Positions 1 to 39,726 of a DNA stretch of 64,000 bases are shown piece after piece. The notes below the pieces were generated by a model. It had not been told where the DNA came from. It saw nothing but the letters and a program-made list of their open reading frames with translations, and ran no database searches. Source of the DNA: Dehalococcoidia bacterium (GTDB lineage: Bacteria; Chloroflexota; Dehalococcoidia; Bin125). The stretch covers positions 2,867,956 through 2,931,955 of the forward strand of contig OZ244861.1 in the NCBI GenBank assembly GCA_965221065.1, given 5' to 3'. A program made the position numbers and the translations under genes. The stretch's first letter is position 1. Every line of letters begins with the position of its first letter.

Positions 1-13
1 TCCAGAGCGAAGG

Positions 14-50
14 TCAGTTCGAAGGTTCTTGCTTTTAGGAAGTTTGGTGG
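14..50 (+). repeat. Direct repeat R1 (~38 bp) of the att-like repeat family near the tRNA-Ala 3' end
   Basis: gtcaGttcgaaggttcttgcttttaggaagtttggtgg matches R4 (9292..9329) at 37/38 positions by eye, same orientation. Confidence 0.7.
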
Positions 51-348
51 GCTGTGCACGCTTGGCCGAGAAGCGAACGTAGCCGTCGCGGTCGCGCTTG
101 AGCGGACAGGCGTCTGGGATCACTTCGAATGGCCACACAGGAACCGAGCCAGTCTCTGCCTCCAGTGTTCAGCGATGCATGCCTCGGCTGCAACGTTGTC
201 GAGAGGCTCTTGAACAACCGCGCCGACCCAGAGGAGCAACAGGCAATACGGCGATGCGCTTAAGCTCGCTGTCCATAGAGCAGCCATTCAGCTTTACCCT
301 CGAAACTGCTTCAACCTGCAGGGCCCTTCCGCTGATAGCGTTGGGGGC

Positions 349-3300
349 ATGTCCGAGAACTCGGCCCACGACGCGTTCGCAAGCCTTGCAGGAGGACCGG
401 CCGCGAAGATCGCTGACCTGTTTGAGCGCGCCTGGACCGTCGGCAGCCTCCTCGATCTGATCTCAGGCGAGATTGTCGAGTTGCGCCTGGAAGAGCAGGA
501 CCCGGATGGACTCGGCGTCGAATTCTCTCGTGTCACGGTCGCTGGCAACCACGAATACCACTCAGTCAAGCGCCAGGCGCCCGACTCCGCGGGCCGCTGG
601 ACACCCTCAGAAATCACCAGGAAATCTGGGCCTCGGATGCGCTCGTTCCTAGGCGATCTCTTCGGCCATCTTGGGCGCGACGAGACTACGGCGGCCGTAT
701 TCGTCAGCCAGGACGCCGTCCAGCATCTACGGGAAGCGTCGGAACGCGCACGCCAGGCGGTGAACCTCAGCGAGTTCCACGGCTTACTCTCGGCAGCGCA
801 GCGCCGCGCTTGGGACAAGCATGTGGTGCCCCTAGCTGAACGCCCTGACGAGGCCTACGCAAAGTTCCGAACGTGCGAGTTCGTCAACATCGAGCATCGC
901 CAACTGGTCCGCTGGGTCGAGCAGCGAATCTCCGCCCTGATTGCCCGGGAGGACTCCGAGCCCGTGGATGCCGAGCAGTTGAGGACCCTGCTAGAAGGGT
1001 TCGCCTGGAGTCGATTAGGTCAGTCGATCAGCCACGAAGACCTGGCACACAAGCTTGCTGCGCACGGATATCGAACTCGGGCGCCCTTGGCGGGCAGTCA
1101 GGCCGGACAGCAACTGCGCGCGATTACTGATGCTTACATCGGCAGAATCGAGCGGACGCTAATCAACGGCGCAGCGATTCCCCGTTCGCAATCGGAGTCG
1201 GTCGCAAACGACGTTCTATCTGGCGACCGGTCTCTGCTGCTACTCGGCGAGGCAGGCGTAGGAAAGAGCTGCGTCATGGCTCAAGTAGTGCGTGCGCTCC
1301 GCCTGAAGGGGGTGGTTTGCTTCGCCTTTCCGGCCAGTGATCTGCGGGGCGCTATGTCTGCGAAGGAGGTTGGTCAACGGATGGGCCTGCGAGAGTCGCC
1401 GGTCGGCGAGTTGGCGCTGGCCGCTCGGGGGCGCCCTGCGGTCCTCTGTATCGATCAACTCGACGGGCTGGCCGCCGATACAGAGCGAAACGAGCTCGGG
1501 CACCGCGTCCTGCACGCGCTCGCGGACGAAGCCTCGCACCACCCAAATCTGCGCGTTCTCTTCGCTTGTCGCTCGTTCGACCTCGACGAGGCGTCGTCGC
1601 TCGCCTGGGTCCACAAAGGGGACTCTGCGATCGCTCGCAAGGTTGAAGTACTCGTCTTGACCGTCGGCGACGTGACGCTGGCCCTTGACGACGTAGGGAT
1701 CGCGTGGCAGCAACTGACCGCGGAACAGATCGAACTGTTGCGCGTGCCCCTGCACCTCTATCTGTTCATTGAAGCGGCACAGTCCCGACAGCATCGCTTC
1801 GCGACCGTTGATGATCTATTCGACGCCTATTGGAAAGAGAAGTCGACGAAGGTCAGCACGGCCTTGCCCGCGGCAAACAGCGGCTGGGCTGCTTCAGTGT
1901 CCAGGCTGTGTCATGCGCTCAGCGAGCACGAGGCGTACTCCGTTCCTGATTATGAACTGCTCGACTACTTTCCGGCAGAGGCGCTCGCGATGGCGTCCGA
2001 AGCGGTGATCTCTCTTGAACAAGGCGAGGTCGGCTTCTTCCACGACGCCTTCAGCGACTACGCCTTCGCTCGCACTTTCGCCACCGAACGGCGAGACCTG
2101 CTCAAATGGCTCGAGGACGACCGGCAGGACTACTACCGCCGTCGTCAGGTGATTGCCGTACTCACGTTCATTCGCCGCCGACCAGGGGACCGAGCCCGCT
2201 ACCTGCAGTCCGTAGAGAGGCTGTTGGCCGGTCCTGAACTGCATTTTCATATCAAGCGCCGGATTATCGATTGGCTGCGGTCGATCGCTGATCCGCTCGC
2301 TGAGGAGTGGTCAATCCTGGAGCAACTTGAAGGACAACTTGGCGATCACGTTTGGCGGGTCGTCAGCAACTCGGTGCCGTGGTTCGACTTACTAATGCAG
2401 ACCGGACATTGGAAACGCTGGTTGAGCGGCAGCGACGAATGGATCGACCTCGCCGTAGGCCTTCTGCAGTCGCCGCGCCTGCTAGATGAGCGAACCCCGG
2501 ACATCCTCGATCTAATCGAGCAGCATCAGGATGGTTCGGAGGGTTGGCGGAATAGGATGTGGAGCCTGGCCCGTTGGGAGTCGGGCTACAGGGAGCCGAG
2601 AAAGCGGGCATGGCTGCTGGAACTTCTGGCGAGTGAATCCCCAGATAGTCCAGTGCTGTCGCTGAACGGCGAACTGCTGATCCAGGTGCTGCACGGTGTT
2701 AGACAACACGCTCCCGAGTTCGCGACCAGGGTCATCGGTGCCTGGTTCGATCACGTTCTTGCCGAGTTGGCTCGTGTAGACGAACCGGAACCGTGCTACA
2801 GCGACCTCTATCTGGGTTCCACCGGGTGGGAGATGGAGCAGTGCGCGAAGGCTGCTCCGGTTGCGTTCGTGGAGGAATTGTTCCCTCGTCTTGTCCGGCT
2901 GGAACAGAACGCTCCCCTGCAGCTGTTGACAGCGCCCAGCGGGACGGACTCGCCGCGCCGGGGGCTGCGTGAACTCGTCGGCGAGGCAATGATCCTCGCG
3001 GCTCACTCCGAGCCGAAGGCACTCCACTTGCTGGCGGAGGACGTCGACCGCCGCGGCGATCGGTGGACGCGCTGGATGAATGCCGTGATGCTCGCAGCGA
3101 TGAGCGCTAACCCCGAAGAGTTCGCGGACGCGATTGTGCAGTTCCTGTTGGCCGATCCGGATCGGCGACTCGACTCGGGATATGACCACTCGAACGGCGC
3201 TGAGCTCTTCTTGTCGGTCAGCCGCAGGGCCGTTGCGGCTGCGGCGCTGCATTGCTCGGATCCGCTGCTACGAGACATCGAATGCGCCATACTTGAGATT

Positions 3301-4911
3301 CAGCCAACGCGACCGCTGGTCGACGAATCCAGGGAGAAGATCGAACTCGCGCTCCTCTGGTGCTTGCCTGAGGACCGGATCGGATCGTCGGTTCGGTCGC
3401 GAATCCAGGAACTTGAGGCGCAGTTGCCGGAGGTAAAACGTCGCGGCGCGCCCGAGCCGGTTGACTACGAAGAGGCATTCCAATACGCGGAGTCGCCGAT
3501 TCCTGAAGCGGAGGCGCTCAGCACATCGGACGATGAGTGGCTCGATGCGATGCGGAATGTCGGCGGTACAAGCGCGACGTTCCATGGAGATCGATTCATC
3601 GGTGGTGCGCATGAGCTATCGCGAACCTTGGAACGCGCTGCGCGGCGAGATCCGGCACGATTCGCCTCACTGGCTCTGCGATTGGAGGCCACGGACCGGC
3701 CCGAGTACTTCAGCGGCCTCCTGCTTGGCCTTACCGGCAGCGAACCGGACTCTCCTCGAGCCGGAACCCAGGACCAAGTCACAGGCGTGATTCGCCGGAT
3801 AGTCGCCTTGGGTGTGGACATGCCCAAGACCGAGATAGCACGAGCGATCGGCTCGCTCGCCGACGAGCCGATACCGAACGACATGATCCGCAGCTTGTGC
3901 CGAATCGCGAGCGAGGATCCCGATCCAGCGGAGGATGCCTGGATCGGGCCGGAAGGCTCGATGGCGGCGATCAATCAAGCTATCAACACGGCCCGAGGCG
4001 CGGCCGCGGAGGCCATCGCCAAACTTCTGTTCGCTGAACGCAACCGCTGGGACCTGGTCAAGGACACGGTGCACCGGCTGGCCGAGGATCCTGTGCTGGC
4101 GGTCCGAGCGACGACGGCGCATTGCTTGTTGGCAATTCTGCCCACGAACCAGGACGAGGCTCTCGAATGCTTCGCGCGACTCATTGAGGAGGGTGCGCCG
4201 ATCGCCGATTCGCACTACGTCCGGCATTTCGTCGCTCGCGCCGCCAACCGCGACTACACAGCGATACGGCCGATTCTGAAGGGCTTGGTCGCGTCGGATA
4301 CAGATGCGGCCGCGCGCGTCGGTGCGAGTGCAATCGTGGGTGCCTCCCTTGGCCCGGACAATCCTGACGCGCAGGAGGATGCGCGAATGGTCGCCGAAAT
4401 GGGCGAACAGCAGCGATCTGGAGCTGCCGAGGTGTACGCAACCCATGTCGCAGATGAACGGGTGGGCGCCATATGCGCAGCGCGTCTCAGCGCACTGTTC
4501 AGCGACGACAGCGAGTTAGTCCGAGAAGCCGCCGCCCGTTGCTGGTACCGTTTCACTCCCGACCAGGTTGCGGGGCAAGGCAGCCTGATCGGAGCGTTCG
4601 CCCAGTCAAAGGCCTTCGAGGAAGCTCGCATCTCCATCCTGCTCAACCCGCTTGAAAGGACAAACCTTGCGTTGCCCCTGCAGCTCTGCGACCTCACCGA
4701 GCGGGCTCTTGACTCGTTCGGAGAGAAAGCCTCGTCGATTCGCTTCGCCGAGGCGTTTGCCGCAAAGACGCTCGGCGTGTTGATGTTTCGGCTACTGGAC
4801 GGTGTTTCTGATCCCGACGGGCAGGCGCGCATACGCGCCCTCATCGATCGAATGATCGAAGCGAATTTCTACGGCGTGGCAGAGGAACTGGAACGCCGCC
4901 TTGGCGAATAG
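349..4911 (+). CDS. Giant STAND-like P-loop NTPase (1520 aa) with putative N-terminal nuclease-like region and long C-terminal helical-repeat region; Avs-like antiviral ATPase candidate
   Basis: Walker A LLLLGEAGVGKSC. About 60 aa later Walker B VLCIDQLD. About 25 aa later hhhhxCRS (RVLFACRS); this spacing is typical of STAND/NB-ARC. The N-terminal ~80 aa has a D..(E)..K-like motif (DPDGLGVEF..HEYHSVKRQ) that can be aligned with the second giant protein (35641..39726). The C-terminal ~900 aa is Leu/Ala-rich helical-repeat-like. Long uninterrupted ORF with ATG start. Confidence 0.6.
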   Translation: MSENSAHDAFASLAGGPAAKIADLFERAWTVGSLLDLISGEIVELRLEEQDPDGLGVEFSRVTVAGNHEYHSVKRQAPDSAGRWTPSEITRKSGPRMRSFLGDLFGHLGRDETTAAVFVSQDAVQHLREASERARQAVNLSEFHGLLSAAQRRAWDKHVVPLAERPDEAYAKFRTCEFVNIEHRQLVRWVEQRISALIAREDSEPVDAEQLRTLLEGFAWSRLGQSISHEDLAHKLAAHGYRTRAPLAGSQAGQQLRAITDAYIGRIERTLINGAAIPRSQSESVANDVLSGDRSLLLLGEAGVGKSCVMAQVVRALRLKGVVCFAFPASDLRGAMSAKEVGQRMGLRESPVGELALAARGRPAVLCIDQLDGLAADTERNELGHRVLHALADEASHHPNLRVLFACRSFDLDEASSLAWVHKGDSAIARKVEVLVLTVGDVTLALDDVGIAWQQLTAEQIELLRVPLHLYLFIEAAQSRQHRFATVDDLFDAYWKEKSTKVSTALPAANSGWAASVSRLCHALSEHEAYSVPDYELLDYFPAEALAMASEAVISLEQGEVGFFHDAFSDYAFARTFATERRDLLKWLEDDRQDYYRRRQVIAVLTFIRRRPGDRARYLQSVERLLAGPELHFHIKRRIIDWLRSIADPLAEEWSILEQLEGQLGDHVWRVVSNSVPWFDLLMQTGHWKRWLSGSDEWIDLAVGLLQSPRLLDERTPDILDLIEQHQDGSEGWRNRMWSLARWESGYREPRKRAWLLELLASESPDSPVLSLNGELLIQVLHGVRQHAPEFATRVIGAWFDHVLAELARVDEPEPCYSDLYLGSTGWEMEQCAKAAPVAFVEELFPRLVRLEQNAPLQLLTAPSGTDSPRRGLRELVGEAMILAAHSEPKALHLLAEDVDRRGDRWTRWMNAVMLAAMSANPEEFADAIVQFLLADPDRRLDSGYDHSNGAELFLSVSRRAVAAAALHCSDPLLRDIECAILEIQPTRPLVDESREKIELALLWCLPEDRIGSSVRSRIQELEAQLPEVKRRGAPEPVDYEEAFQYAESPIPEAEALSTSDDEWLDAMRNVGGTSATFHGDRFIGGAHELSRTLERAARRDPARFASLALRLEATDRPEYFSGLLLGLTGSEPDSPRAGTQDQVTGVIRRIVALGVDMPKTEIARAIGSLADEPIPNDMIRSLCRIASEDPDPAEDAWIGPEGSMAAINQAINTARGAAAEAIAKLLFAERNRWDLVKDTVHRLAEDPVLAVRATTAHCLLAILPTNQDEALECFARLIEEGAPIADSHYVRHFVARAANRDYTAIRPILKGLVASDTDAAARVGASAIVGASLGPDNPDAQEDARMVAEMGEQQRSGAAEVYATHVADERVGAICAARLSALFSDDSELVREAAARCWYRFTPDQVAGQGSLIGAFAQSKAFEEARISILLNPLERTNLALPLQLCDLTERALDSFGEKASSIRFAEAFAAKTLGVLMFRLLDGVSDPDGQARIRALIDRMIEANFYGVAEELERRLGE

Positions 4912-5296
4912 CCGTTCTGGCACACGAGAGGCCATTTCAACGATCACGGACCAACATGCGCCGAGCTACAGAGCGTGAATCGGAATCTGCCCGCGTTGAT
5001 TTTCGCAAGCGCCTTGTAGCACTCCCTTGAGCTGCCGCTAGGGCGATTGGTGCGGCGCCTCTGCCTGCTGTCGGTAGCTACATGCCAGACCTACGGCTGG
5101 AGGAGTTCGCGGAAGAAAGTTGCCCGCTCTCACAGAGAGAGGGGATAGGACGACCGAGTGTGCGATGCACGCGCCTCAGCAGGAGATCAAGTGACGAGGC
5201 CGGAGTGCGCGCCTGACTCAATCGGGACGACTCAATGCCTACCAATCAGGTGGATGGCAGCCCGGGCGGTTGTGAAGCTAAAGATCGAGGTGGAAC

Positions 5297-5335
5297 GTCA
5301 ACTCAAAAGCTCTTGCTCTTAGGAGTTTTGATGGG
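5297..5335 (+). repeat. Direct repeat R2 (diverged copy of the att-like repeat)
   Basis: gtcaactcaaaagctcttgctcttaggagttttgatggg; ~75% identical to R4; shares the acgtcaactc 5' flank with R4. Confidence 0.55.
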
Positions 5336-5467
5336 CTGGTCAGGTCTGACCGATTGATTGTGCCACGGCACGGCAGACACAGCCAGGCAAGGAGGCGAGG
5401 CCAAGCCAGACCGGGCTAACGCTGGCGGCACCGAGTCAAGACTCGCTCGACCTACGGCAGCGTTGGC

Positions 5468-5776
5468 CTATAGGTCTGGGTGTTCGATCTCTCGGAGCGC
5501 TCTCTTGATCCCCCGTCGAGTCAGTTCTAGGCGCATGTGGACGCAGGTTCGTCGCGTCTCCCGGTAGTCCTTCAAGGTGCCCTCCAGCCGGGAGGCATGG
5601 CGAACAGCCGTATCGAGCTCGACTTGCTGTCTCGGTAGAGACCCACCGATGATCTTGCTCGCCCTCTCGCCCTCCTTGGCTGCCCCCTTGAGCGAGCCGA
5701 GCAATCCATCTAGTTTGGACATTCCGCTCTCGAAATCAGTGATCAGCTTGAGCGTGTCGTCCTGTCGATTCGCCAC
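5468..5776 (-). CDS. Hypothetical small protein (102 aa), module B cargo
   Basis: GTG start at 5776 preceded by GGAGGA at a good spacing; protein-like, charged, helical composition; no recognisable domain. Confidence 0.45.
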   Translation of the reverse strand: MANRQDDTLKLITDFESGMSKLDGLLGSLKGAAKEGERASKIIGGSLPRQQVELDTAVRHASRLEGTLKDYRETRRTCVHMRLELTRRGIKRALREIEHPDL

Positions 5777-5969
5777 GACTTCCTCCGAATCTCGGTTGCG
5801 CCTGACCTCTCCCCGCGCGCCAACTCACCCATGCTATGCCATCACCAGAGGGACAGAGCGAGCGTCTTGGCCGTGACCATGGGGCCGATGTGGCATCCTC
5901 TGGCAGGCGATGCGTGACCGCTATTGCCAACCTCTCTCCCGGACTCCAGTGCAGAGCTGCAGCGGGAAG

Positions 5970-6008
5970 GTCAACTCAAAGGGTCTTGCTTTTGGGAAGT
6001 TCGGCGGG
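5970..6008 (+). repeat. Direct repeat R3 (diverged copy of the att-like repeat)
   Basis: gtcaactcaaagggtcttgcttttgggaagttcggcggg; same orientation and length as R1/R2/R4. Confidence 0.55.
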
Positions 6009-6148
6009 CCGCCGTTTCCTACACATGGGGCTCGAGGCGGTCCGGGCCGCGTGAACGCTGCTCGCCATCTCGTACAACCTGCGCCCCCTGGACAAGTGCT
6101 GACGCCACCTGCGGCGGTGCATCGCAGACCTGCGCGCGGCAGCCCGGC

Positions 6149-6574
6149 CTATCGCCTATTGGCGACGCGAAGGCGCTCAGGCGGCAGCTTCTCGATCGTT
6201 CCTTCTTGCACCAAGGCATTGCGCAGCTTCCTGGCGGCGTTTCTGTTGGGTCCTCTCAATTCGGCGTGGGCATCGGCGAGCGCCTCGTGAGGGTGGTCGG
6301 CGTGGCCATCCAGGACGACATCGAACTCGCCCGGCTTTCGCGCTCGGCGCAGAGCGCCGACCGAGATCCGGCCACGGCCGTAGTGCTTGAACCTGCAGAG
6401 ATGAAGCTGTTCACCGTCCTGGTTGGGTAGCCGACTCCGGATGAACACAGACGGCGGTTCCGAGCTGCTGAAGACGGCGCTCGACAAGTCGCCGTTGCGG
6501 TAGACAGCACCCGGCCAGAGAAGCCGAAACGCTTGCTCGTCATCGTCGAGGCGCGGAAACCGGCGGGCGCCCAT
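6149..6574 (-). CDS. Hypothetical protein (141 aa), third gene of coupled three-gene operon
   Basis: ATG at 6574 overlaps the upstream gene's TGA (ATGA overlap at 6574..6577); no recognisable domain. Confidence 0.5.
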   Translation of the reverse strand: MGARRFPRLDDDEQAFRLLWPGAVYRNGDLSSAVFSSSEPPSVFIRSRLPNQDGEQLHLCRFKHYGRGRISVGALRRARKPGEFDVVLDGHADHPHEALADAHAELRGPNRNAARKLRNALVQEGTIEKLPPERLRVANRR

Positions 6575-7290
6575 CAGCGAGCGGAAAGCTCAGATCGGGA
6601 GGCGCACGACTTGAGCAGGGCGGCCAGGGCCGACACACTCTCCACGGGGACATCGCGGTCGTCGTCGCTGTTGCACAGGGCAGCCTCGCCGGGGAACGGC
6701 GCGTCGTCCTCGATGTAGAACTCGACCGAAGCGCCATTGTCGAACTGCCACTCGAGGATGACGAAGCCGTCTTCGGTGGTGGCGACTAGCGGCACGGCGG
6801 CGGCGCGGGTCCGGTCGGAGATTTCGAGGACCTTCATCACAACTTCGGGTTTGGGGTGGCCCGCGCCGTCGCAGTCGGGGCTCCAGACAATGCGCCGGAC
6901 GACGTCCTCGAGTAGCTCGATGTCAAGCGTGAGAGCGGGCCGCTGCGGTTGAACGCGGGCCCACTCGAGGAGGTGGCGGCTCCAGTACGACTGCTTGCCC
7001 GACGGCTCCTGGGTGTTGAGTTGCATCAGATACATCGTTGTGAAAGCCGACGACGCGGAACCTCGTTCGAAGATCGCACGGTAGTGATCGGCAAAGTAGG
7101 CGTTGGGGTTAGCGGGTTCTGATGCGGGGGGTTCATTGCGGCGCAGGATCTCATCCAGTGCGTTGCGCACGGGAGCGTCGACGTTGAGCGGATCTGCGGT
7201 CCGTTGTTGGTGACCAGATATGCCGAGACCGCCCGCGTTGCCTGTGGATATCGACGTGTCGATAGGCACAAAGGAAGACTCGTGGCTCAT
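6574..7290 (-). CDS. Hypothetical protein (238 aa), second gene of coupled three-gene operon
   Basis: ATG at 7290 overlaps the upstream gene's stop (ATGA at 7287..7290); acidic C-terminal half; no recognisable domain. Confidence 0.55.
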   Translation of the reverse strand: MSHESSFVPIDTSISTGNAGGLGISGHQQRTADPLNVDAPVRNALDEILRRNEPPASEPANPNAYFADHYRAIFERGSASSAFTTMYLMQLNTQEPSGKQSYWSRHLLEWARVQPQRPALTLDIELLEDVVRRIVWSPDCDGAGHPKPEVVMKVLEISDRTRAAAVPLVATTEDGFVILEWQFDNGASVEFYIEDDAPFPGEAALCNSDDDRDVPVESVSALAALLKSCASRSELSAR

Positions 7291-7997
7291 TGCGATTCCT
7301 CTCGATCGAGCAGCTCGACGAAGCGCCGGGCTTTGTCCAGTGAGTCGTTGAGGTGGCCTTCTATCTCGGCTGCGCCGAGTGGTCCGACCTCGAATCGGTG
7401 CAGGTTGGCGGCGATGAAGACGCGCGGGGTGCCTTCTTCGCGGAAGCGCGGTTCGACGGTGAGATTGAAGGCGCCACCGTCCTCGGCCGAGAAGGAGAGC
7501 GTGCCGTCGCCACCCACGATGGGCCAGTCATCTATCGCATCCAGGCCGCGAAACATGCGGTGGGCTAGGTAGGCGGAGGCGGTCATTGCGGCGTCCTGTT
7601 CGTAGACGAGATGGATGTTGTAGCCGACGGCGTAGGGCTGGTCGGGCACCCTCCCGGTGATCTGCAGCGCCAGACCGATGACCTCGGCCAGCCGGCCAAT
7701 GTCACCAGGACGTGGGTACTCCTGGACGACGGCGGAGCCGCTGGGGGCGACGTTGAAGGTGATTCGATCACGTCCGATGGCGAACGAGCGCGGTTCGGTG
7801 AATGAGGCCTCGACGCCGGGGCCGAAGCCGATGTCGAGACTGAGGCCTTGGCGCATGGCTGGGCCGGCTCCCGGTGCAGGTATGACCTCGGCGCCGAGCG
7901 ACCGCCGGAACTCGGACTGCGTTGCATCGTCGTGCAACAGCTGTAGCCCGACTAGCACGACGCTAGCCTGGAGTACCTCTAGGTCGAGGATGGTCAT
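7287..7997 (-). CDS. Hypothetical protein (236 aa from the ATG at 7997; the ORF is open up to 8456), first gene of three-gene operon
   Basis: ATG at 7997 preceded by AAGGAAA RBS; the upstream in-frame extension to 8456 looks non-protein-like; no recognisable domain. Confidence 0.5.
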   Translation of the reverse strand: MTILDLEVLQASVVLVGLQLLHDDATQSEFRRSLGAEVIPAPGAGPAMRQGLSLDIGFGPGVEASFTEPRSFAIGRDRITFNVAPSGSAVVQEYPRPGDIGRLAEVIGLALQITGRVPDQPYAVGYNIHLVYEQDAAMTASAYLAHRMFRGLDAIDDWPIVGGDGTLSFSAEDGGAFNLTVEPRFREEGTPRVFIAANLHRFEVGPLGAAEIEGHLNDSLDKARRFVELLDREESQ

Positions 7998-8898
7998 GAT
8001 TTCCTTCGGGCGAGTTCGATGCGCCAAGGGCGAGGCGTAGCCAATCCAGTTGCCTCCATCTCTCAGGCGCGCAGCATACGACACGTTTTGCGCGGCCTGC
8101 ACAGTGTCTACGATATGTCGTCCAGATGGCAGCGGTATTGCCTGCCCGGCACGTGATGCGTGATGGCCAATCAGGGCCGTCGAGATCGCGGGTCTGTCTC
8201 TCTTGACAGCTCTCGCGGCGATGATCGCCCTGGTGGCCGCCCTGTTCGAGGTCATGCAGCCAGCCTCGGCGGCCAACACGGTGAGGAACATCTCTAACGC
8301 CTCGGACACGTCGAGAAGGCCGGCTCCGGCTACGCCGTCAAGAGCCTCATACTGGACGGCGCGTCCGACAACTTGGCTACCTTCACTAGCGAGTACGCGA
8401 GCGTCAGTACCGGCCTCCACCTGTCGAACATCCAGACGGAAGCACTGGAAGCCCAAGCCTCACTGGAAGCCACTGACCGGACTCCACGTCGGCCCCTCCG
8501 GCCGGTGCGTCTGCGGCGTACACCATCACCGTAGGGATCCTCGACGCGGTTGGCGGCGTGAACAGTATCCTCCTGCGACTCGTGGGAACACTCAACGTCA
8601 CCGTCGGCGACTTCGACAGGGACGTTTGGTTCAAGGTTGTTGGAGGCTAGATGGCTCATGCAGTGAAACGCCATGATCCGGTAGCACAGAACTCCTCAAT
8701 CTCCTCTGCATCATCACCTTCACACTCTGCCCTTGTCGTCAGGTCTCACTGGGTACGGTCTAACTGTGCCGCCTCACGCTGGTCACTGCGTCGACAAGAC
8801 TCCAACCATGTTTCCGGACGTAGCCTGAAGCAATGCGCCGATGCATCCGACGGCCAATTCTCGTGAGAAGCACTCTTTGAGAGTGGAGAGCATTAGGG

Positions 8899-8921
8899 GT
8901 TGACTCCGGTCAGGAGTCAAC
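8899..8921. other. Perfect 9-bp-stem inverted repeat (gttgactcc ggtca ggagtcaac) in a lower-GC apparently non-coding stretch
   Basis: Read directly from the sequence; lies in the gene-poor 8457..9291 segment of the islet. Confidence 0.5.
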
Positions 8922-9291
8922 GACTGGCGCTGACTGCTTCTGCGTACTCGAGTCCTCCGCTGACCGCCAACATTGCATGAACCAGCTTCAACATCGTGAC
9001 GTGGCCGGCGCGCACCAAACAATCGCTCTTGGGCGGAGCCGGCAAGAGTGCCAAGGTCAAGCGCTGCCACTGGGCAGATGGGGGGCTGCACAGGCAGAGC
9101 CTCTTCGCCGACGCCAACGTCGCGTGTCAGTCGCCTCCAGATAGCCGGAAGTGCCGCGAAGCTCCAGAGGACCCCAATCGAGCCTCGTCGCGCTTGCTCG
9201 GCATCCCTCCGTAGCGCCGAGCTATCGCAGCTTCGCCCATAGGTATCCGGAGACTTGGAACGGCACTCACAATCACAGGTCCAGCGGAAAC

Positions 9292-9323
9292 GTCAACTCG
9301 AAGGTTCTTGCTTTTAGGAAGTT

Positions 9324-9329
<6 letters not shown>
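9292..9329 (+). repeat. Direct repeat R4, abutting and overlapping the tRNA-Ala 3' end (attL-like)
   Basis: gtcaactcgaaggttcttgcttttaggaagtttggtgg; its last ~8 nt are the reverse complement of the tRNA-Ala CCA, discriminator and first acceptor bases. Confidence 0.7.
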
Positions 9330-9399
<70 letters not shown>

Positions 9400-10639: not shown

Positions 10640-11989
10640 CTAGCGACGCCCGATCGCCGCCCTGGGGCTGGGCATGCCCGGCGTGCGGCCCGAGGCGATG
10701 TCCTTCATGATCCCTTTGGCTTGCTTGAACTGATTCAGCAACTGATTGACTTCCTGCGGCGATGTCCCGCTCCCTTTGGCAATCCGCCGGCGCCGCGAAC
10801 CATTAATCATGTCCGGCTTGCGCCGCTCTTCCGGCGTCATTGAGAGCACGATCGCTTCGAAGTGCATGAAGAAGTCGTCGTCGATCTCGTCAACCTGGAT
10901 CTGGTCCTTGATCGAGCTCAGGCCCGGAATCATGCTCACGATCTGCGAGATCGGGCCCATCTGGCGCACCTTGCCGATCTGCTCGATGAAGTCCTCAAGG
11001 TCGAACTCGCCATCCTGCAATCGGCGCCGCCAGACCTTGGCGTCCTGCTCGCCGAACTCTTCCGATGCGCGTTCGACCAGGGTTGACATGTCGCCGCGCC
11101 CGAGGATGCGGCTGGCGAGGCGATCCGGGCGAAACGGTTCCAGAGCGTCAGGTCGCTCGCCGATGCCGAGAAACTTGATCGGCGCACCGGTGACCGCGCG
11201 AATCGAGAGCGCTGCACCACCGCGGGCATCGCCGTCCATCTTCGAGAGCACCACACCGGTGATGCCCACAGCTTCGTCGAACGCTGAAGCCGCATTCACG
11301 GCGTCCTGACCCGACATTGCATCGGCCACCAGCAGGACCTCCGTGGGTTCGAAGCACGCTTGCAACTCCGTGATTTCGGTCATCATGTCTTCGTCGATGT
11401 GCAGTCGACCGGCTGTATCAACGATCACCGTGCCGGCGCCAATCTGTTCGGCGCGTTCCAATCCCTGCTCAACGATCCTGGCGGGGCGTTCGTGAGAGCC
11501 GAGTTCGAAGACCTCGATGTCGAGCTGCCGACCCAGCGCCTGCAGCTGATCGATCGCCGCGGGTCGATAGACATCAGCCGCGATCAACAGGGGACGATCG
11601 CCGGACTTTCGCGCTCGCAACGCCAGCTTGGCCGAGGTCGTCGTCTTACCGGAGCCCTGCAGCCCGACCATGAGGATGATGGTTGGCCCTTGCGAAGCTC
11701 GATGCAGACTCGGCGACTCGGTGCCGAGCAGTGAGATCAGTTCCTCGTTGATGATCTCGACGATGCGATTGAGCGGCGTGGGTGAGCGCATCACCTCGTC
11801 GGTGTTGGCTCTACCGCGCACCGCCTTGATGAAGTCGCGGGCGACCTTGTAGTTGACGTCGGCCTCGAGCAGCGCCAATCGGACTTCCCGCAGAGCGGCC
11901 TCGAGGTCCTTCTCCGAGATGGCGCCGCGCCGGCCAAGCGTCGCGAAGACGCCCTGTAATTTGCCACTCAATGCATCAAACATGGCCAT
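10640..11989 (-). CDS. ffh: Signal recognition particle protein Ffh
   Basis: NG-domain GTPase motifs GLQGSGKTTT and DTAGR; C-terminal Met-rich M-domain. Confidence 0.92.
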   Translation of the reverse strand: MAMFDALSGKLQGVFATLGRRGAISEKDLEAALREVRLALLEADVNYKVARDFIKAVRGRANTDEVMRSPTPLNRIVEIINEELISLLGTESPSLHRASQGPTIILMVGLQGSGKTTTSAKLALRARKSGDRPLLIAADVYRPAAIDQLQALGRQLDIEVFELGSHERPARIVEQGLERAEQIGAGTVIVDTAGRLHIDEDMMTEITELQACFEPTEVLLVADAMSGQDAVNAASAFDEAVGITGVVLSKMDGDARGGAALSIRAVTGAPIKFLGIGERPDALEPFRPDRLASRILGRGDMSTLVERASEEFGEQDAKVWRRRLQDGEFDLEDFIEQIGKVRQMGPISQIVSMIPGLSSIKDQIQVDEIDDDFFMHFEAIVLSMTPEERRKPDMINGSRRRRIAKGSGTSPQEVNQLLNQFKQAKGIMKDIASGRTPGMPSPRAAIGRR

Positions 11990-12108: not shown

Positions 12109-13134
12109 CTACGACAACCCGGCCTCGGCCATGCGGACGCAGAGGTCGCCGACGCGAACGCTGTAGCCCCACTCGTTGTCGTACCAGCTCACGACCTTGA
12201 CCTGGGTGCCTTCCAGCACCATGGTCGAGAGCGCGTCGATGATCGACGAGGCGGGCGAACCCTTGAAGTCGCTGCTCACCAGCGGCTCATCGGTGTAGTC
12301 GAGGATGCCGTGCAGCGGCGATTCGAGATCGGTGGCGGCCTTCTCGAAGGCGGCGTTGAGTTCTTCCGCATCGGTGGCGCGTTCGGCGTCAATCACGAGG
12401 TCGACGACCGAGACGGTGCTGGTCGGCACCCGGTACGCCATGCCGTTGAGCTTGCCGTTGAGGTGCGGGAGCACCAGTCCGACCGCCTTGGCGGCGCCGG
12501 TGGTGGTCGGGATGATATTCATCGCCGCCGCGCGGGCACGGCGCAGGTCGCTGTGGACGGTGTCGAGGATGGCCTGGTCGTTGGTGTAGGCGTGAATCGT
12601 CGACATGATGCCGCTCTTGATCCCGACGGTGTCGTCGAGCACCTTGGCCATCGGCGCGAGGCAGTTGGTGGTGCAGGAGGCGTTCGAGACAACGTGGTGC
12701 GAGGCCGGGTCGTAGGCGTCGTCGTTGACCCCGAGCACGATCGTCAGGTCCTCGTTCTTCGCCGGCGCGGAGATCACGACCTTGGACGGCCCGTGGTTCA
12801 GGTGCCCGCGCGCTCGTTCCGCATCCGTGAAGATGCCTGTGCTCTCGACCACGATCTCCACGCCGTAGTCGCCCCAGGGAATCTGCCCTGGGTCACGCTC
12901 GGATATGACCGCGATCCGCTGCCCGTCGATAACGAGGTCGCCGTCAACCACATCGACGTCGCCCGGGTAGCGCCCGTAGTTGGTGTCGTACTTGAACAGG
13001 TGCGCGTTGGTCTCCGAGTCTGTCAGGTCGTTGATCGCCACGACCTTGAGGTCATCGCCATGGAAGTCGAGCATGCCCTTGAGCACCTGCCGACCGATTC
13101 GGCCGAAGCCGTTGATGCCAATGTTCGTCGTCAC
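12109..13134 (-). CDS. gap: Glyceraldehyde-3-phosphate dehydrogenase (type I)
   Basis: [12 protein letters not shown]-binding motif and the active-site [12 protein letters not shown]. Confidence 0.93.
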
Positions 13135-14913: not shown

Positions 14914-15840
14914 ATGGAACATGAAATCCAGCAGTTTCTCACCTACATGGCCGCCGAGCGGGGGGCCTCCGCGAACACCATCTCGGCGTATCGCAACGAT
15001 CTGGCCCAGTTGCGGGCCTACTTCGTCGAGCAGCACGCGAAGCTGCACGCGGATGATCCCTCCGCCACGACTCCGATCGAAGAGATCGACGCCGAGCAAC
15101 TGCAGGAGTACATCGTTCACCTGCGCGAGCAGCAGTACGCCGCGGCGACTGTTGCCCGCAAGGTCGCGGCGGTCAAGAGCCTGTTCAGCTACCTCCATGG
15201 CGAGAGCATCATCGACGTCAACCCCGCCGAGCAACTCAGTTCGCCCCGCGTCGGCCGCAGCCTGCCGCGCACATTGACCGTCCAGGAGGTCGACGCGCTG
15301 CTCGAGCAGCCCGGCCGCTGGAACACGCCGGAGGCGGCTCGCGATCAGGCGATGCTCGAGATGCTCTACGCCACCGGCATGCGCGTCTCCGAGTTTGTCT
15401 CGCTCGACCTTTCGTCGATCGAGTTGCAGGGTCAGCGGGCGTCGGTGCGCTGCGTCGGCAAGGGGCGACGCGAGCGTCTGATTCCGATTCACTCAGCCGC
15501 CGTAGCGGCGCTGCATCACTACCTGCAGGAGGCGCGGCCCAAGCTCGCTCGCGGGCGGCGCGAGGTTGCGCTGTTCATCAATCGACGGGGCGAGCGACTG
15601 ACCAGGCAGGGCGTCTGGCTGATCATCAAGCACTACGCCCAGGAGGCCGGGATCTCCGGCGTGACGCCGCACACCCTGCGCCACAGTTTCGCGACGCACC
15701 TGCTGCGTGGCGCTGCTCCGCTGCGCAACGTCCAGGAGCTGATGGGTCACGCCAACATCTCGACCACGCAGCTCTACACCCAGTTGACCGACGAGCATCT
15801 GCGGGACGTCTACGATCGGGCACATCCGCGCGCCAGCTAG
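14914..15840 (+). CDS. xerD: Tyrosine site-specific recombinase XerD/XerC family
   Basis: N-terminal SAM-like core-binding region (YMAAERGASANTISAYRNDL); catalytic HTLRHSFATHLL..GHANISTTQLYT with the Tyr nucleophile; start taken at the MEHEIQQ ATG. Confidence 0.85.
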   Translation: MEHEIQQFLTYMAAERGASANTISAYRNDLAQLRAYFVEQHAKLHADDPSATTPIEEIDAEQLQEYIVHLREQQYAAATVARKVAAVKSLFSYLHGESIIDVNPAEQLSSPRVGRSLPRTLTVQEVDALLEQPGRWNTPEAARDQAMLEMLYATGMRVSEFVSLDLSSIELQGQRASVRCVGKGRRERLIPIHSAAVAALHHYLQEARPKLARGRREVALFINRRGERLTRQGVWLIIKHYAQEAGISGVTPHTLRHSFATHLLRGAAPLRNVQELMGHANISTTQLYTQLTDEHLRDVYDRAHPRAS

Positions 15841-15878
15841 TCCAACCTCGTCAGCGGGGACGGTGCGTCCGAGCCTGA

Positions 15879-17189
<1,311 letters not shown>

Positions 17190-19236: not shown

Positions 19237-19313
19237 TGGCGCGCCCGGCAGGACTTGAACCTGCGACCTCTGCCTCCGCAGGGCAGCGCTCTAATCCGCT
19301 GAGCTACGGGCGC
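19237..19313 (-). tRNA. tRNA-Arg (anticodon reads GCG in my manual fold; backbone close to Arg-CCG tRNAs)
   Basis: GCGCCCGTAGCTCAGCGGATTAGAGCG..CTGCC-CTGCGGA-GGCAG..GGTTCAAGTCCTGCCGGGCGCGCCA; clean cloverleaf, 77 nt; the anticodon reading is unusual and should be verified. Confidence 0.7.
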
Positions 19314-19354
19314 ATTGAAATCGGCTTGAGTCGTGGTTGGAATGATTGGAGCGT

Positions 19355-35640: not shown

Positions 35641-38600
35641 GTGAGGGGAAAGCGGAAGTCGAAGGGCAGACGAAGGAACGAGCAGAAGAGAAGTCGTCGG
35701 TCTGAATCGCCTGCAACTCCGATCCCGCGTCCTCGGCGCCAGAGTGGGCCGGCGAGGAAGGGCGCGGAACTAGAGGTACTGCAACCCAGTCCGGCGGTAG
35801 GTGACGAGTCATGGCTACCTGCAGCCTGGGAGATATCCCGCTCAGGCGCGACAGCAGGACGAGGGTTCCACTTCCAGGATGTGGTCGGTGCGTGGCTGGC
35901 TTCGCGTCTGGCATCGGGTGGCCTGAGCGCCGACAGCCTGATCCCTGAAGGTATCGACGACCTGCAAGTTGAAGGGCCTGAACCGATCCAGCTGGAGGTT
36001 AAGTCGCGTCAGACGCGAGTCGGACCATTTCCGGTCAAGGATGGCGCGCCGGTGATCTATGAGTCCCTGGTTCGGCACTCAGAGCGCTTTGGGAGCGGGC
36101 GAAAGCTGAAGGTCGTCCTCGAACAAGGATTGGTCGGCCTCGATGCTCAGGAGGACGACGGGATCAGAGCACTCCCGCTAGCCAAGGTACTTGAGGGCGT
36201 CCCAGCCCTCGGCAAGTCCGTCGCGAAGCGAATCGACGGAAGCGAACTCTCCACGGCGGAATTCGAGACCCTCACCTCACTCACTGAAGTGATCATCGGC
36301 ACTTGGGGCCAATTCCTTCAGGACACTGAGCACCACATTCGGCAGTTGGTGGCGCTCCCTCCAGCCGCCCTAGGCAGCATCTCACTCTCAATTCGGTCGA
36401 TGGTGGCCGACGCGGCCGACGCCAACGCCGACCCGGAGTTCGGGCGCCGAGTCGAACTGGACAAGACCGCTGTCATCGATCGGATAAGTGAGGCGGCAGC
36501 GTTGTTGGACATCGACTCAATTGAGACTGCGCTGAGTCGAGGAATCTGCAGTCCGCTGGACGCGACGCCGGTGGAGACTGGTGATGCGTATTACGAGGGC
36601 GTCTCCACTCAGCCGGGACACGTTGCTGCGGGGCTGGTCGTGCCACGGCCTGATCTGAGCGGGAGGGTGGTCCATGGATTGCGGGCAGAGAAGGCCGTCC
36701 TGTTGACGGGGCCATCGGGCGTGGGCAAGTCGGCGGCGATGTGGTCGCTGCCGTCAGCACTCCCTGGAGTCGTCTGGTTTCGCCTTATCCGCGTCACAGA
36801 CGCGGATCTCGCCGATATCGAGCGATTGGTTCAGGCCTACTCCACGTCATCGAGGTGGTCGGTTGGCCTGTTAGCGGACGCGGTCGGGCGGGGAGAGTTT
36901 GAAGCCTGGTCTCGATTGCGCGAGAGAATCGCCGCTATCCCTGGCGCTCTCTTGGTCGGCACGGTGCGCCGCGAGGACTTGTGCACGCTTGGTGAGCTTG
37001 CCGATTGCCACCTTGTGACCGTCGCGCTCGACGAACCAGCGGCCGAGGTCATCCATGCCGGACTGCTTCGTCGAGGTGCCACCTCTGTCCCCTATTGGCG
37101 AGAGGCGTATGAAAAATCGGACGGTCTCACGATGGAGTTCACGTATCTACTGACACGCGGTGCACGGCTGCGCGATGTCGTTGCCGATCAGGTCGGCGAC
37201 CGGGTACGACAGGGTCGCGAACTCGAGCTGCAAGTTCTTGCGCTCGTGTCGACCGCTGATCGCTGGTCTGCCTCGGTGCCCACCCCTGAACTGCAAGAGC
37301 GGCTTCAAGTCGATGCTTTTGAGCTCAAGGCCGCCATGGCACGCCTCGTCGAGGAGCATCTCGTCGTCGACCGCGGCGGCAGCGTCAGCGGCGTGCACCA
37401 GGTCAGATCTGAAGCGATTTCAGAAGCGATTCATGAGTACCCGCCCCCGCTTCTGAGCGATACTGTCTCCGCCGCCCTGAAGATGCTCCGAGTCGAGGAG
37501 CTCTCTCGCTTCGCGTATGAGGCGCTGCGCGATGTGCCAGATCTGGAATCCCTCGTGCTAGGGACCCTACGAGACATGGGTCAGGAGGACATTGAACAGT
37601 TGCTAGCCGGTCTTCGGGCCTTGGAGATGGTCGACTTTCACCGACAAGCGTCGGCGTGGGCCGAAATCACGGAGCGGCACGAAGTGCCGCCGGCGCATCG
37701 TCCACTCGTGTTGGAATTCACCGCAGCCAGCTTGGACTTTCCGGATCTCTTTCCGCAGTCGCTTGTCTCGGCAAGCGAAGAGATCCGCGAGCTGCCAGTG
37801 CAAAGCACGATGCGCGACAACTTGCTTGAGATGTTTGGGTTGGAGCAGATCGCTATTGCATTGAACACGGTGTCTGACCCGAAGGAATGCGCCCGTCTGC
37901 TCAGAGCGGCGCGGGGCACGTCTGTGGATTGGGCTCCATTGGTTGAGTCGCTAGAGAGTTCCTCAACCCTGCCTAGCGCCCTCGAACACGCCGAAACCAG
38001 TGAACTGAGCGAGTGTGTTGAGGCGGCGCGCGATGTGTCCGTGAGTCTGGCGGAAGCGGTTGTGCATGCTGCCGGCGGCGTAGAGGCCGTGATGCAACGG
38101 ATTCGCATAGGAGATCCATGGCTCCGTGAGCTGAAGATCGAGCGCGTAGAGGGCCGAACAATAGGTTTAGCTCGATACCTCCACGTCTCGTATGACCAGC
38201 AGGACGATGCCCGTGATCGCTCCGTCGCCCTTGGACGCCAACTGCTGAGGCTCTTGCCATCAATCGACCAAGTCGACATCAAACCCTTGGGTCCAGACGG
38301 CGAGGTTCTCAAGATAGGAGGTCAGGAAGTCGCATCCTCTGGATTGCTGCGTCGTTACGATCATGGTTCGGTGGCGATCAGCTGGAATCGTCAGCGGTTC
38401 CAACTCGCACAGTCGTTGCTCGGTGTTTCCGAGACCGAAAGACTGAGCGAACTGGCCAGGCTTCTCGGAGAAACTGCGGCACTTTGTCGAGATTACGGTG
38501 CGGAGTTGGTTAGGCCTTCTGGTCAGTTGAGCGAGACTGAGCGCCTGAATGAGCGTCGGATGCGCATTGACGCGCAAGCTAGAGCGATTCCCCCTCCGCG

Positions 38601-39726
38601 AGGAGACGATCAATTCGATGAGCCCCAAAGGGAGGACCAGGTTGGCGACGCGCCGGACGGGGATCTGTCGTCCTTCATTACGAACATCACGGATAAGAGC
38701 CTGCCCAGACTCCATCACCCCCAACAATGGACCGCACTTTCGGCCTGGCTCAGCGACACCGTGCTGCGGAAGAACGTGGACCACTTCGGTGAGTTGGACT
38801 GGCGGCTGGTCGGCCTCGACGGCCCGCCAGATGCACTAGGTGAGATCTCAGAAACCTTGGATCATATTGACGCTGTGTTGCGCGCAGTTGTCGCAGATCC
38901 GACTGCCATCAGCGCGATTCTGAACGAAGCACGGCGGGGCAATCGGAGGAATGCACTCGCACGCGCTGCTGACGTAGCAAGGCGAGTGTCCCAGAAACAG
39001 ACAAGGCAACGACTCTTGGTGATCGAGACGGCATTGCGCTCGGTCGTGGAGGACGTCGACCTCTATTGGCTCGACAGCGATCGGCGCAGAGGGCTATCCG
39101 AAAGCTTCGCGGTCGGAGTCTCTGTCAGCTCATTGGTCGAATGGAATGCCGCGCTGGAATTGCTTCTTGAAGAAGTTGGCGAGCTTCGCAAGCCAGCCGA
39201 GACTCCGATCATCGCGCCAATCCTAAGGGGCAAGACGGCTTGGAGATTCGCGGTTCAGCTGGTGCCTCAGCCCTGGCCGGTAACAGAGCCCGGCGAGTTT
39301 GAGCGACTGCTGCCTGCACCGATCGAGGAGCGTTTGACTGAACAAGTCGTCAAGTGCCACTCGGCGCTTCAGGTTTTGTCTGGGATCTCGGTTCTGGGTG
39401 TCGATGGGGAGATAGACACGAGACTGAGTCCCGTTGTGGAGCAGGCAGTTCAGGAAGTTACTAAGGCCAATGCGTTGATTCTGGAACTAGGTTCTGATGA
39501 CGTGATCTTGGAGATCGGCATGTGGTTGCGAGAAATTGCCAATCAAGTGAACGCTGAGCTAAAGGGGGACGCCGAACCGGGTGAGTACGCGGCAAATGTC
39601 TGGTCGGGTGCATTTGCCGCCCCATCGCCGGATAGCGAGACATTGAACACTGTTCTCGCCCTCAGCCTGGAGTGGGATGCTAGTCCCGACGGGGCTTTGG
39701 CTCTACTAGAGACGTTGATTCCGTAG
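35641..39726 (+). CDS. Giant STAND-like P-loop NTPase (1361 aa) with putative N-terminal PD-(D/E)xK-like nuclease region; Avs-like antiviral ATPase candidate
   Basis: Walker A VLLTGPSGVGKSAAMW. About 50 aa later hhhhD (SVGLLADAVG). About 25 aa later LLVGTVRRE (TxR). The N-terminal IDDLQVEG..IQLEVKSRQ is a D..E-x-K-like motif. GTG start with GGAGGAG RBS, immediately next to the integrase. Confidence 0.6.
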   Translation: MRGKRKSKGRRRNEQKRSRRSESPATPIPRPRRQSGPARKGAELEVLQPSPAVGDESWLPAAWEISRSGATAGRGFHFQDVVGAWLASRLASGGLSADSLIPEGIDDLQVEGPEPIQLEVKSRQTRVGPFPVKDGAPVIYESLVRHSERFGSGRKLKVVLEQGLVGLDAQEDDGIRALPLAKVLEGVPALGKSVAKRIDGSELSTAEFETLTSLTEVIIGTWGQFLQDTEHHIRQLVALPPAALGSISLSIRSMVADAADANADPEFGRRVELDKTAVIDRISEAAALLDIDSIETALSRGICSPLDATPVETGDAYYEGVSTQPGHVAAGLVVPRPDLSGRVVHGLRAEKAVLLTGPSGVGKSAAMWSLPSALPGVVWFRLIRVTDADLADIERLVQAYSTSSRWSVGLLADAVGRGEFEAWSRLRERIAAIPGALLVGTVRREDLCTLGELADCHLVTVALDEPAAEVIHAGLLRRGATSVPYWREAYEKSDGLTMEFTYLLTRGARLRDVVADQVGDRVRQGRELELQVLALVSTADRWSASVPTPELQERLQVDAFELKAAMARLVEEHLVVDRGGSVSGVHQVRSEAISEAIHEYPPPLLSDTVSAALKMLRVEELSRFAYEALRDVPDLESLVLGTLRDMGQEDIEQLLAGLRALEMVDFHRQASAWAEITERHEVPPAHRPLVLEFTAASLDFPDLFPQSLVSASEEIRELPVQSTMRDNLLEMFGLEQIAIALNTVSDPKECARLLRAARGTSVDWAPLVESLESSSTLPSALEHAETSELSECVEAARDVSVSLAEAVVHAAGGVEAVMQRIRIGDPWLRELKIERVEGRTIGLARYLHVSYDQQDDARDRSVALGRQLLRLLPSIDQVDIKPLGPDGEVLKIGGQEVASSGLLRRYDHGSVAISWNRQRFQLAQSLLGVSETERLSELARLLGETAALCRDYGAELVRPSGQLSETERLNERRMRIDAQARAIPPPRGDDQFDEPQREDQVGDAPDGDLSSFITNITDKSLPRLHHPQQWTALSAWLSDTVLRKNVDHFGELDWRLVGLDGPPDALGEISETLDHIDAVLRAVVADPTAISAILNEARRGNRRNALARAADVARRVSQKQTRQRLLVIETALRSVVEDVDLYWLDSDRRRGLSESFAVGVSVSSLVEWNAALELLLEEVGELRKPAETPIIAPILRGKTAWRFAVQLVPQPWPVTEPGEFERLLPAPIEERLTEQVVKCHSALQVLSGISVLGVDGEIDTRLSPVVEQAVQEVTKANALILELGSDDVILEIGMWLREIANQVNAELKGDAEPGEYAANVWSGAFAAPSPDSETLNTVLALSLEWDASPDGALALLETLIP

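Follow-up and report, generated by a model that had tools for sequence, protein, structure and literature searches.

What is the 1520-amino-acid protein encoded near one end of a 64,000-nucleotide stretch of a Dehalococcoidia genome, and why does its gene lie between direct repeats that lead up to a tRNA? The stretch, hereafter the window, covers positions 2,867,956 to 2,931,955 of contig OZ244861.1 (assembly GCA_965221065.1). The gene occupies window positions 349..4911 on the plus strand, starts with ATG and, in a genome of 62% GC, maintains an open reading frame (ORF) without interruption over 4.5 kb. A first-pass annotation, made from the letters alone, had proposed an Avs-like antiphage candidate consisting of a nuclease, a STAND NTPase and helical repeats. 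Our analysis makes it quite probable that the product of this complete gene, with a Cap4 nuclease, a STAND NTPase and a helical sensor, is an antiphage pattern-recognition receptor that works as a single protein, belongs to the Avs7 family and acts through an Avs-type mechanism.

The evidence that carries this reading is the match to one solved protein. When the single sequence was compared with all PDB sequences, only one significant match was found, 9n00_A (E = 4.9e-15), recorded in the PDB as an 'AAA family ATPase' of 1523 amino acids. Lee et al. (Nature 2026, PMC13581612) list 9n00_A under data availability as apo SeAvs7, the Avs7 of Salmonella enterica (WP_079981830.1, 1523 amino acids; PDB 9N00, 9N01 and 9YIX). 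An identical copy of the window protein is on record (P0001). A homologue search yielded 108 proteins, mostly of ~1500 amino acids, which are 22–56% identical over the full length and come mainly from Chloroflexota metagenome-assembled genomes; accessions MYA00893.1, MYF79374.1 and MDE2932735.1 are close relatives. We aligned 40 homologues, with identity down to 22%, to obtain the family profile and the conservation counts given below; domain scans were made on 32 members. The profile matched SeAvs7 with E = 2.8e-71 in two collinear stretches, residues 12–662 with SeAvs7 11–656 (nuclease and NTPase) and residues 949–1506 with SeAvs7 944–1522 (the C-terminal half of the sensor; 84 bits, E = 3.5e-23). 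SeAvs7 was the sole STAND match in the PDB, where none of Avs3, Avs4, Avs5 or the NLRs reached E = 0.01 with the profile; the other matches were TAL-effector, alphaRep and P-loop noise. Identity to SeAvs7 is 29% in the NTPase core by pairwise BLASTP and lower elsewhere. The two proteins are near-equal in length and share their domain order, a Cap4 nuclease followed by a STAND NTPase, a large helical sensor and a short C-terminal helix.

The NTPase module (NBD-HD1-WHD; residues ~275–660, 1171..2328, plus strand) is delimited by its correspondence to SeAvs7, by residue invariance and by Foldseek. The motifs cited in the first-pass annotation are all present as quoted: Walker A, GEAGVGKS, at residues 300–307 with K306; Walker B, VLCIDQLD, at 365–372 with D369; and the hhhhxCRS motif as LFACRS, containing the sensor arginine R408. 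Their spacings, put at ~60 and ~25 residues, came out roughly so, at 63 (K306 to D369) and 39 (D369 to R408). Counting by hand along the printed single-sequence and profile alignments, we found that K291, D358, R367, R395 and H545 of SeAvs7 correspond to K306, D369, R380, R408 and H565 here. K306, D369, R408 and H565 are invariant across the 40 sequences, and R380 is kept in 36, so the residues that contact ATP and ADP in SeAvs7 are retained. In SeAvs7, the lysine, Asp358 and Arg395 coordinate ATP and Mg, with Arg395 reaching the ATP gamma-phosphate, His545 touches the ADP beta-phosphate, and Arg367 is part of the autoinhibitory interface between NTPase and C-lobe (PMC13581612). The paper's numbering reads 'Thr291, Lys292' where our own count of SeAvs7 gives K291 and T292.

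Structural comparison places this module among the STAND proteins. With the N-terminal model as query, the top 16 Foldseek matches in the PDB were mostly Avs4 (8dgf), Avs3 (8dgc), NLRP3, NLRP9, NLRC4 and Avs5; NOD2, NLRP1 and Apaf-1 ranked lower, and classical AAA+ proteins also scored lower. Among the 32 family members scanned with Pfam, nSTAND_NTPase5 was found in 22, NACHT in 12 and nSTAND1 in seven. A histidine in the winged-helix domain, here H565, is a standard STAND signature. The fold matches, the profiles and the invariant H565 and R408 support a predicted STAND NTPase related to NLRs and AP-ATPases, as had been claimed from the motifs; a classical AAA+ protein was considered and rejected on the Avs and NLR fold matches and the STAND profiles in family members. 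The defence-gene models of PADLOC point the same way. On its own, the protein matched PDC-M54A (1.9e-8) and Avs2 (5.6e-4), and across the 32 members PDC-M54A matched 27 (best 4.5e-22) and Avs2 24; together with the SeAvs7 match, these hits bear out the proposal of an Avs-like antiphage candidate. They were the best PADLOC matches, running from the end of the nuclease through the NTPase, but their coverage is limited to the NTPase region and the PDC-M54A models are ~100 positions longer. A literature search on PDC-M54 found nothing.

The N-terminal effector (residues 1–270; 349..1158, plus strand) was assigned as a Cap4/DUF4297-type PD-(D/E)xK nuclease from an AlphaFold2 model, conservation and the SeAvs7 alignment. 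The model of residues 1–700 (predicted local distance difference test, pLDDT, 86.1; predicted template-modelling score 0.66) places the alpha-beta-beta-beta-alpha-beta core of this fold in residues 17–120, with a helix at 17–39, strands at 42–47, 59–63 and 68–74, a helix at 100–107 and a strand at 114–120. Within it, E48, E58 and S72-V-K74 form the putative catalytic site. E48 and K74 are invariant in the alignment, E58 is present in 39 of 40 sequences, and F59, H71, R75, Q76, Y25, E26 and W29 are near-invariant; at position 72, 34 sequences have S, whereas the other six, which are more distant members, have Q. From residue 12, the family profile aligned this domain with the SeAvs7 Cap4 stretch 'IEIDSIS..LVDDVV..CQCKKNQ', in which Q-C-K stands where the window protein has S-V-K and D stands for both E48 and E58.

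Pfam Cap4_nuclease was found in four of the 32 members (best 2.1e-8); P0075, with 30.1 bits, and P0077, with 35.0 bits over model positions 2–191 of 200, exceed its gathering score. The PADLOC LmuA (DUF4297) models match a few members. The N-terminus of the window protein fails the Pfam model, and that of SeAvs7 itself scores E = 0.095. Because both N-termini fail, the Cap4 assignment rests on homology at the level of the family. The restriction-endonuclease-like fold suggested by the first-pass annotation thus stands, by profile and by model, while the Mrr subfamily that it had named does not, since family members match Cap4_nuclease instead. The same DUF4297 nuclease family supplies Cap4, the CBASS effector, and LmuA of Lamassu; unlike the window protein, these are triggered by cyclic oligonucleotides or an SMC-like partner rather than by a fused STAND sensor.

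The C-terminal sensor (residues ~661–1520; 2329..4908, plus strand) is predicted to be an all-alpha HEAT/TPR-like solenoid from its AlphaFold2 model and the profile match. The model of residues 641–1520 (pLDDT 88.2), which takes in the ~860 residues of the sensor, is all helix save one small hairpin, and HEAT repeats were found in 22 of 32 family members; this agrees with the helical repeats that the first-pass annotation had expected in the C-terminal ~900 residues. A short terminal helix at ~1510–1519 closes the model. Avs7 proteins carry a conserved short C-terminal helix, residues 1511–1521 of SeAvs7 (PMC13581612), to which this helix corresponds, the profile alignment extending to SeAvs7 residue 1522.

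When the sensor by itself was used as a phmmer query on a set of 1.84 billion cluster representatives, 1512 proteins matched with E <= 1e-3 and 417 with E <= 1e-30. Among the matches the sensor begins at various offsets: ~620, as in the Avs7-like layout; ~830–890, behind longer N-termini; ~380–460; ~250–400; and ~5–60, in which the sensor is nearly alone. We scanned seven sensor carriers with short N-termini; three were an NTPase and a sensor with no effector, one had a longer N-terminus ahead of the NTPase, and three showed no recognisable N-terminal domain. The Avs7 sensor has been reported to pair with many effectors and to occur also without the STAND module, and proteins as different in architecture as Dsr1 still recognise capsid protein through this sensor type (PMC13581612). 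The variety of layouts that we see fits this account. As with Dsr1 and other non-STAND carriers, the window sensor also occurs without nuclease and NTPase (offsets ~5–60 and ~250–400), but the SIR2 domain of Dsr1 was not seen in any of the seven carriers scanned.

Avs7 was reported in a preprint in January 2026 and then in Nature in July 2026; the family was defined by its sensor, collected by PSI-BLAST and comprises 3,272 verified sequences (Lee et al., PMC13581612). The window protein belongs to Avs7 by every sequence-based defining feature that we tested, and its family is, on these features, a divergent Chloroflexota-centred Avs7 subgroup with an S-x-K nuclease variant. The suggestion of a divergent or undescribed STAND clade therefore survives only in its first half, Avs7 having already been described. 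The host differs as well, SeAvs7 being enterobacterial and the window protein coming from a Chloroflexota (Dehalococcoidia-like) genome.

Several observations weigh against this assignment. The protein on its own reaches no Pfam threshold for STAND or Cap4: a single-sequence scan gave AAA (1.4e-5) and one HEAT repeat, with nSTAND_NTPase5, NACHT and nSTAND3 all below threshold. The middle catalytic position of the nuclease is S72, where SeAvs7 has Q and the classical motif E. A bilobed, sharply bent sensor is a mark of Avs7; fold matches of the window sensor were to generic HEAT/ARM proteins only, in fold libraries that do not contain 9N00. The sensor N-lobe, residues ~662–949, is not aligned to SeAvs7 by the family profile, and for the C-lobe the single sequence finds SeAvs7 as its sole PDB match but weakly, at E = 0.033. 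In a weak local profile alignment, the SeAvs7 residues that contact EF-Tu, Q999 and D1003, read as R and Q. Finally, we infer the ligand, the major capsid protein, from SeAvs7 homology alone, and the oligomeric state and defence phenotype likewise come from analysis rather than from the bench. Given the R and Q at the contact positions, use of EF-Tu by the window protein is doubtful, and the protein probably falls outside the clade that employs this interface. EF-Tu is a structural partner in a sub-clade only, predicted for 192 of 1757 Avs7 homologues (PMC13581612).

The serine bears on whether the nuclease works at all. A decayed, non-catalytic relative, its nuclease dead through the serine in the (D/E/Q)xK motif and serving as scaffold or decoy at most, would account for S72 replacing Q or E in 34 of 40 members and for the missing Cap4_nuclease match at the window N-terminus. 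Against it, K74 and E48 are invariant, and E58, H71, R75 and Q76 are near-invariant, in 40 sequences down to 22% identity, a degree of conservation that speaks of strong purifying selection on the nuclease site. The experimentally active Cap4 domain of SeAvs7 itself also scores only E = 0.095 with the Pfam model, and the reading frame is intact over its whole length. Variants with an S-x-K motif occur in active restriction enzymes, for example Cfr10I. We regard a dead nuclease as very improbable.

The unaligned N-lobe bears on what is sensed. An Avs7-related STAND nuclease whose sensor has diverged to another phage protein, and which would constitute a functionally separate Avs family, is unlikely, though clearly less so than a dead nuclease. 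The missing alignment and the low overall identity would suit it, as would the existence of many Avs families with similar helical sensors but different triggers (PMC13581612). So would fast divergence: at an orthologous locus in another genome (L086), the Avs7-like protein is 54% identical to that of the window and the adjoining Ffh 88%, and therefore either rapid divergence or replacement of the cassette has taken place. However, the anchors on both sides of the N-lobe are collinear and almost equally spaced (662 to 949 in the window protein, 656 to 944 in SeAvs7), so its length is kept; the C-lobe match of the profile is significant and extends to the C-terminal helix; no other solved Avs was matched; and the Avs7 sensor type binds capsid protein even in Dsr1-like architectures (PMC13581612). 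An Avs7 receptor for the capsid protein is the reading that we prefer.

By homology with SeAvs7, such a receptor would at rest be an ADP-bound, autoinhibited monomer. H565 would contact the beta-phosphate, and docking onto the NTPase and the C-lobe of the sensor would keep the nuclease sequestered. During infection, the sensor would clamp around a structural protein that the phage has just produced, most probably its major capsid protein of HK97 fold, and this binding would free the NTPase to exchange ADP for ATP via K306, D369 and R408. A tetramer would then form through the NTPase and nuclease domains, and the assembled Cap4 nuclease (E48, E58 and K74) would degrade double-stranded DNA, resulting in abortive infection. 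In structure, the model of nuclease and NTPase comes closest to SeAvs3 and EcAvs4 (PDB 8DGC and 8DGF), but these give no significant profile match, and what their sensors detect is terminase and portal. A Cap4 nuclease is present in Avs3 too, which assembles into a tetramer once phage protein is bound, with a Cap4 arrangement in the tetramer unlike that of Avs7 (PMC13581612).

Relatives were found at no fewer than 395 loci (a lower bound) in GTDB representative genomes. They occur in Dehalococcoidia and other Chloroflexota, Planctomycetota, Verrucomicrobiota (including Akkermansia), Cyanobacteria (Microcoleus and Leptolyngbya), Acidobacteriota, an Alphaproteobacterium and a Methanothrix. Among the viral contigs of IMG/VR, relatives were present on two only; the family is thus not typically phage-borne. 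The surroundings of the homologues are a defence-island and mobile-element context. P0016 (L085) lies with McrBC, TrwB-like, Replic_Relax and large serine recombinase genes and a tRNA-Glu; P0020 (L087) with an Eco57I-like enzyme, HepT/MNT and, directly downstream, a tyrosine integrase and a serine recombinase; P0077 (L088) with two SLFN_AlbA_2 genes and PglZ; and P0043 (L089) with a serine recombinase, a helix-turn-helix plus M78 peptidase gene, an MmeI-type restriction-modification enzyme and PIN. P0006 (L086) has a transposase and shares the tRNA-Ala/rimM locus with the window, P0007 (L084) lies by a tRNA-Glu, and at L001, L015 and L045 a tRNA is less than 400 nt from the Avs7-like gene.

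This distribution bears on a further explanation, that the protein is a housekeeping or regulatory STAND NTPase outside phage defence. Many STAND clades have no defence association (PMC13581612), and the immediate neighbours of the gene in the window have no function recognisable by Pfam or PADLOC. Set against this are the nuclease effector, the homology to SeAvs7, an experimentally validated defence protein, and the occurrence of relatives in defence and mobile-element neighbourhoods, patchily across phyla; we give the explanation hardly any weight. In the genome nearest L086 (L002), the Avs7-like gene at L002:10001-15421 is split by an insertion of ~860 nt (11016-11879). The inserted DNA shows kinship with the region around the DDE transposase of L086, so this copy has been inactivated by an element resembling an insertion sequence.

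The Avs7-like gene reveals no new mechanism. What is gained is a confident functional annotation for a protein recorded publicly as 'hypothetical' or 'ATP-binding', which extends to several hundred relatives in little-studied phyla (Chloroflexota, Planctomycetota, Verrucomicrobiota, Cyanobacteria and one archaeon) and carries the reach of Avs7 far beyond the enterobacteria that provided the characterised member. A further gain is the strongly conserved S-x-K variant of the Cap4 active site, and another the example of a gene that outpaces its housekeeping neighbours at an orthologous locus, as expected of an immune receptor. The tRNA-anchored repeat array in which the gene lies and the family of a second giant NTPase in the window are less ordinary and likelier to reward study.

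The array consists of four direct copies of an element of about 50–56 nt, at 1..50 (copy 1, at the window start, upstream of the gene), 5285..5334 (copy 2, 374 nt downstream of the stop codon), 5958..6007 (copy 3) and 9280..9329 (copy 4), all on the plus strand and 70–88% identical to one another; in 100 shuffles no match arose. The closest pair is that of copies 1 and 4, with 44 of 50 positions identical (88%) and 27 of 27 in the part beside TGGTGG. Copy 4 terminates in this TGGTGG, corresponding to the CCACCA at the 3' end of a minus-strand tRNA-Ala (CGC) at 9324..9399, the anchor of the array, followed by rimM, rpsP and ffh. The overlap of repeat and tRNA is limited to these last 6 nt; the remainder of copy 4 is the tRNA trailer. 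No long ORF other than the giant gene lies between copies 1 and 2, as the first-pass annotation had it in describing a repeat-bounded module with a single cargo. Its position next to a tRNA applies to the array only, the tRNA-Ala being 4.4 kb from the gene, beyond two further repeat-bounded segments. The segment nearest the tRNA is occupied by two overlapping ORFs, 6574-7290 and 7287-8456 (both minus strand; 238 and 389 amino acids), with no Pfam or PADLOC match; they could be a two-gene cargo.

Direct repeats that bound foreign DNA, one of them overlapping a tRNA 3' end, mark a tRNA-linked island; the array has this layout, and synteny with related genomes breaks at the element. No recombinase or integrase was detected in 51-9279 by Pfam and PADLOC on the ORFs of 5335-9279, the giant gene standing alone in 51-5284. 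On metagenome contig L083, the element (L083:886-938) adjoins the orthologous tRNA-Ala, and synteny with the window (78%) begins exactly at its left edge; in L086 synteny likewise begins at the left edge of copy 4. On two other metagenome contigs the element lies away from any tRNA (L082:793-843 and L081:322-364). Copy 2 corresponds to a 3' flank of the gene that is conserved in related genomes, where a variant of the element follows the stop codon of the Avs7-like gene by 40–70 nt in L086 (L086:~12603-12652), in L084/L001 (L084:~12610-12660) and in L002 (L002:~15470-15516). Beyond it lie a tRNA-Ala in L086, a tRNA-Glu in L084 and, in L002, unrelated DNA that includes another P-loop protein of 1356 amino acids; L002 and L086 share ~92% identity that stops precisely where the element ends in TGGTGG, and they differ from there on. 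The 1356-amino-acid ORF was considered as a homologue of the second giant of the window and rejected on comparison. No flanking repeats were found around the tRNA-adjacent relatives L001, L015 and L045, and the repeat had no match in viral contigs. Two other identities for the repeat were discarded: an RNA, as no Rfam family other than tRNA was matched and there was no consensus structure (-0.65 kcal/mol), and a promoter or terminator, as no such signal exceeded the shuffled expectation.

We read the junction of element and tRNA 3' end as an insertion hotspot, at which the variable region behind the tRNA-Ala grows by insertion at a ~50-nt site. On this reading, two extra segments, 5335-5957 and 6008-9279, were inserted between the gene's own element copy and the tRNA, each having brought or regenerated a copy of the element. 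The whole of 51-9279 could also be one composite island, because copies 1 and 4 are the most alike. A bolder interpretation takes the element, not as a mere att scar, but as the recombination site of an integron-like cassette-stacking system whose recombinase is encoded elsewhere. Each copy ends in a CCACCA-like hexamer, which would mimic the tRNA 3' end. Stacked one by one behind the tRNA as defence genes would be the two ORFs of 6574-8456, the Avs7-like gene itself and, in relatives, giant NTPases of other kinds; and the element would accompany the Avs7-like gene from tRNA to tRNA, being found at tRNA-Ala in L086 but at tRNA-Glu in L084. We hold this to be improbable.

The second giant P-loop protein is encoded by an ORF of 1361 amino acids at 35641..39726 (plus strand), and probably has 1281 amino acids from an internal start (P0115). 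The first-pass annotation had aligned the N-termini of the two giants. At the level of motifs the likeness is there, HSVKRQ in the first and LEVKSRQ in the second, whose N-terminus reads GIDDLQVEG...LEVKSRQ, but BLASTP shares only the P-loop (E = 0.002). An hhalign comparison of the two families is collinear over nuclease and NTPase with a probability of 49.7% (E = 1.7e-4), so that the proposed alignment is plausible but weak. The family of the second giant numbers at least 274 members, in which Pfam domains are all but absent; PADLOC LmuA was found in four of 28 members, with no other PADLOC match, and neither the sequence nor the family profile matched anything in the PDB. Its N-terminus is likely a DUF4297-like nuclease, and the protein may represent an undescribed or newly named Avs-like family.

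The second giant lies in a defence island at a tRNA-Ile (33641-33717) that extends over 33641-44100, where GC falls to 58–61%. The island also contains a large serine recombinase whose 3' end overlaps the tRNA-Ile (33660-35294, minus strand), an ApeA/PDC-S58 HEPN protein (39852-40775, minus strand) and a type II restriction-modification pair, a SmaI-like restriction endonuclease (41448-42227, minus strand) with an N4/N6 methyltransferase (42221-43168, minus strand). The ORFs 44350-46920 and 48144-49805 (both minus strand) and the serine recombinase are 66–73% identical at the DNA level to parts of the L085 element (L085:3614-7848 and 15866-17455), namely to its TrwB-like and Replic_Relax genes and its recombinase. 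The L085 element bears the Avs7-like gene P0016 as cargo beside a tRNA-Glu. This similarity suggests that the window island and the L085 element may belong to a shared family of integrative elements that swaps giant NTPase cargo.

Two smaller similarities concern the tRNA-Ile end of the island. A stretch of 226 nt, window 33706-33930, is 92% identical to L084:6169-6394, far more than the 65–78% found elsewhere between these genomes; it lies upstream of the Avs7-like gene in L084 and at the tRNA-Ile-proximal end of the serine-recombinase island in the window. This end of the island also bears the motif TACCGAAYTGCGAACT, which in L002 and L081 comes after the 50-nt element. The window further contains a four-tRNA cluster at 19237-19712 (minus strand; Arg-GCG, Leu-CAG, Val-CAC and Met-CAT) and a tRNA-Val (TAC) at 21689-21765 (plus strand), from all of which the 50-nt element is absent. 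From ~44 kb to the window end (44000-64000), GC changes sharply to 68–73%, compared with 60–66% before.

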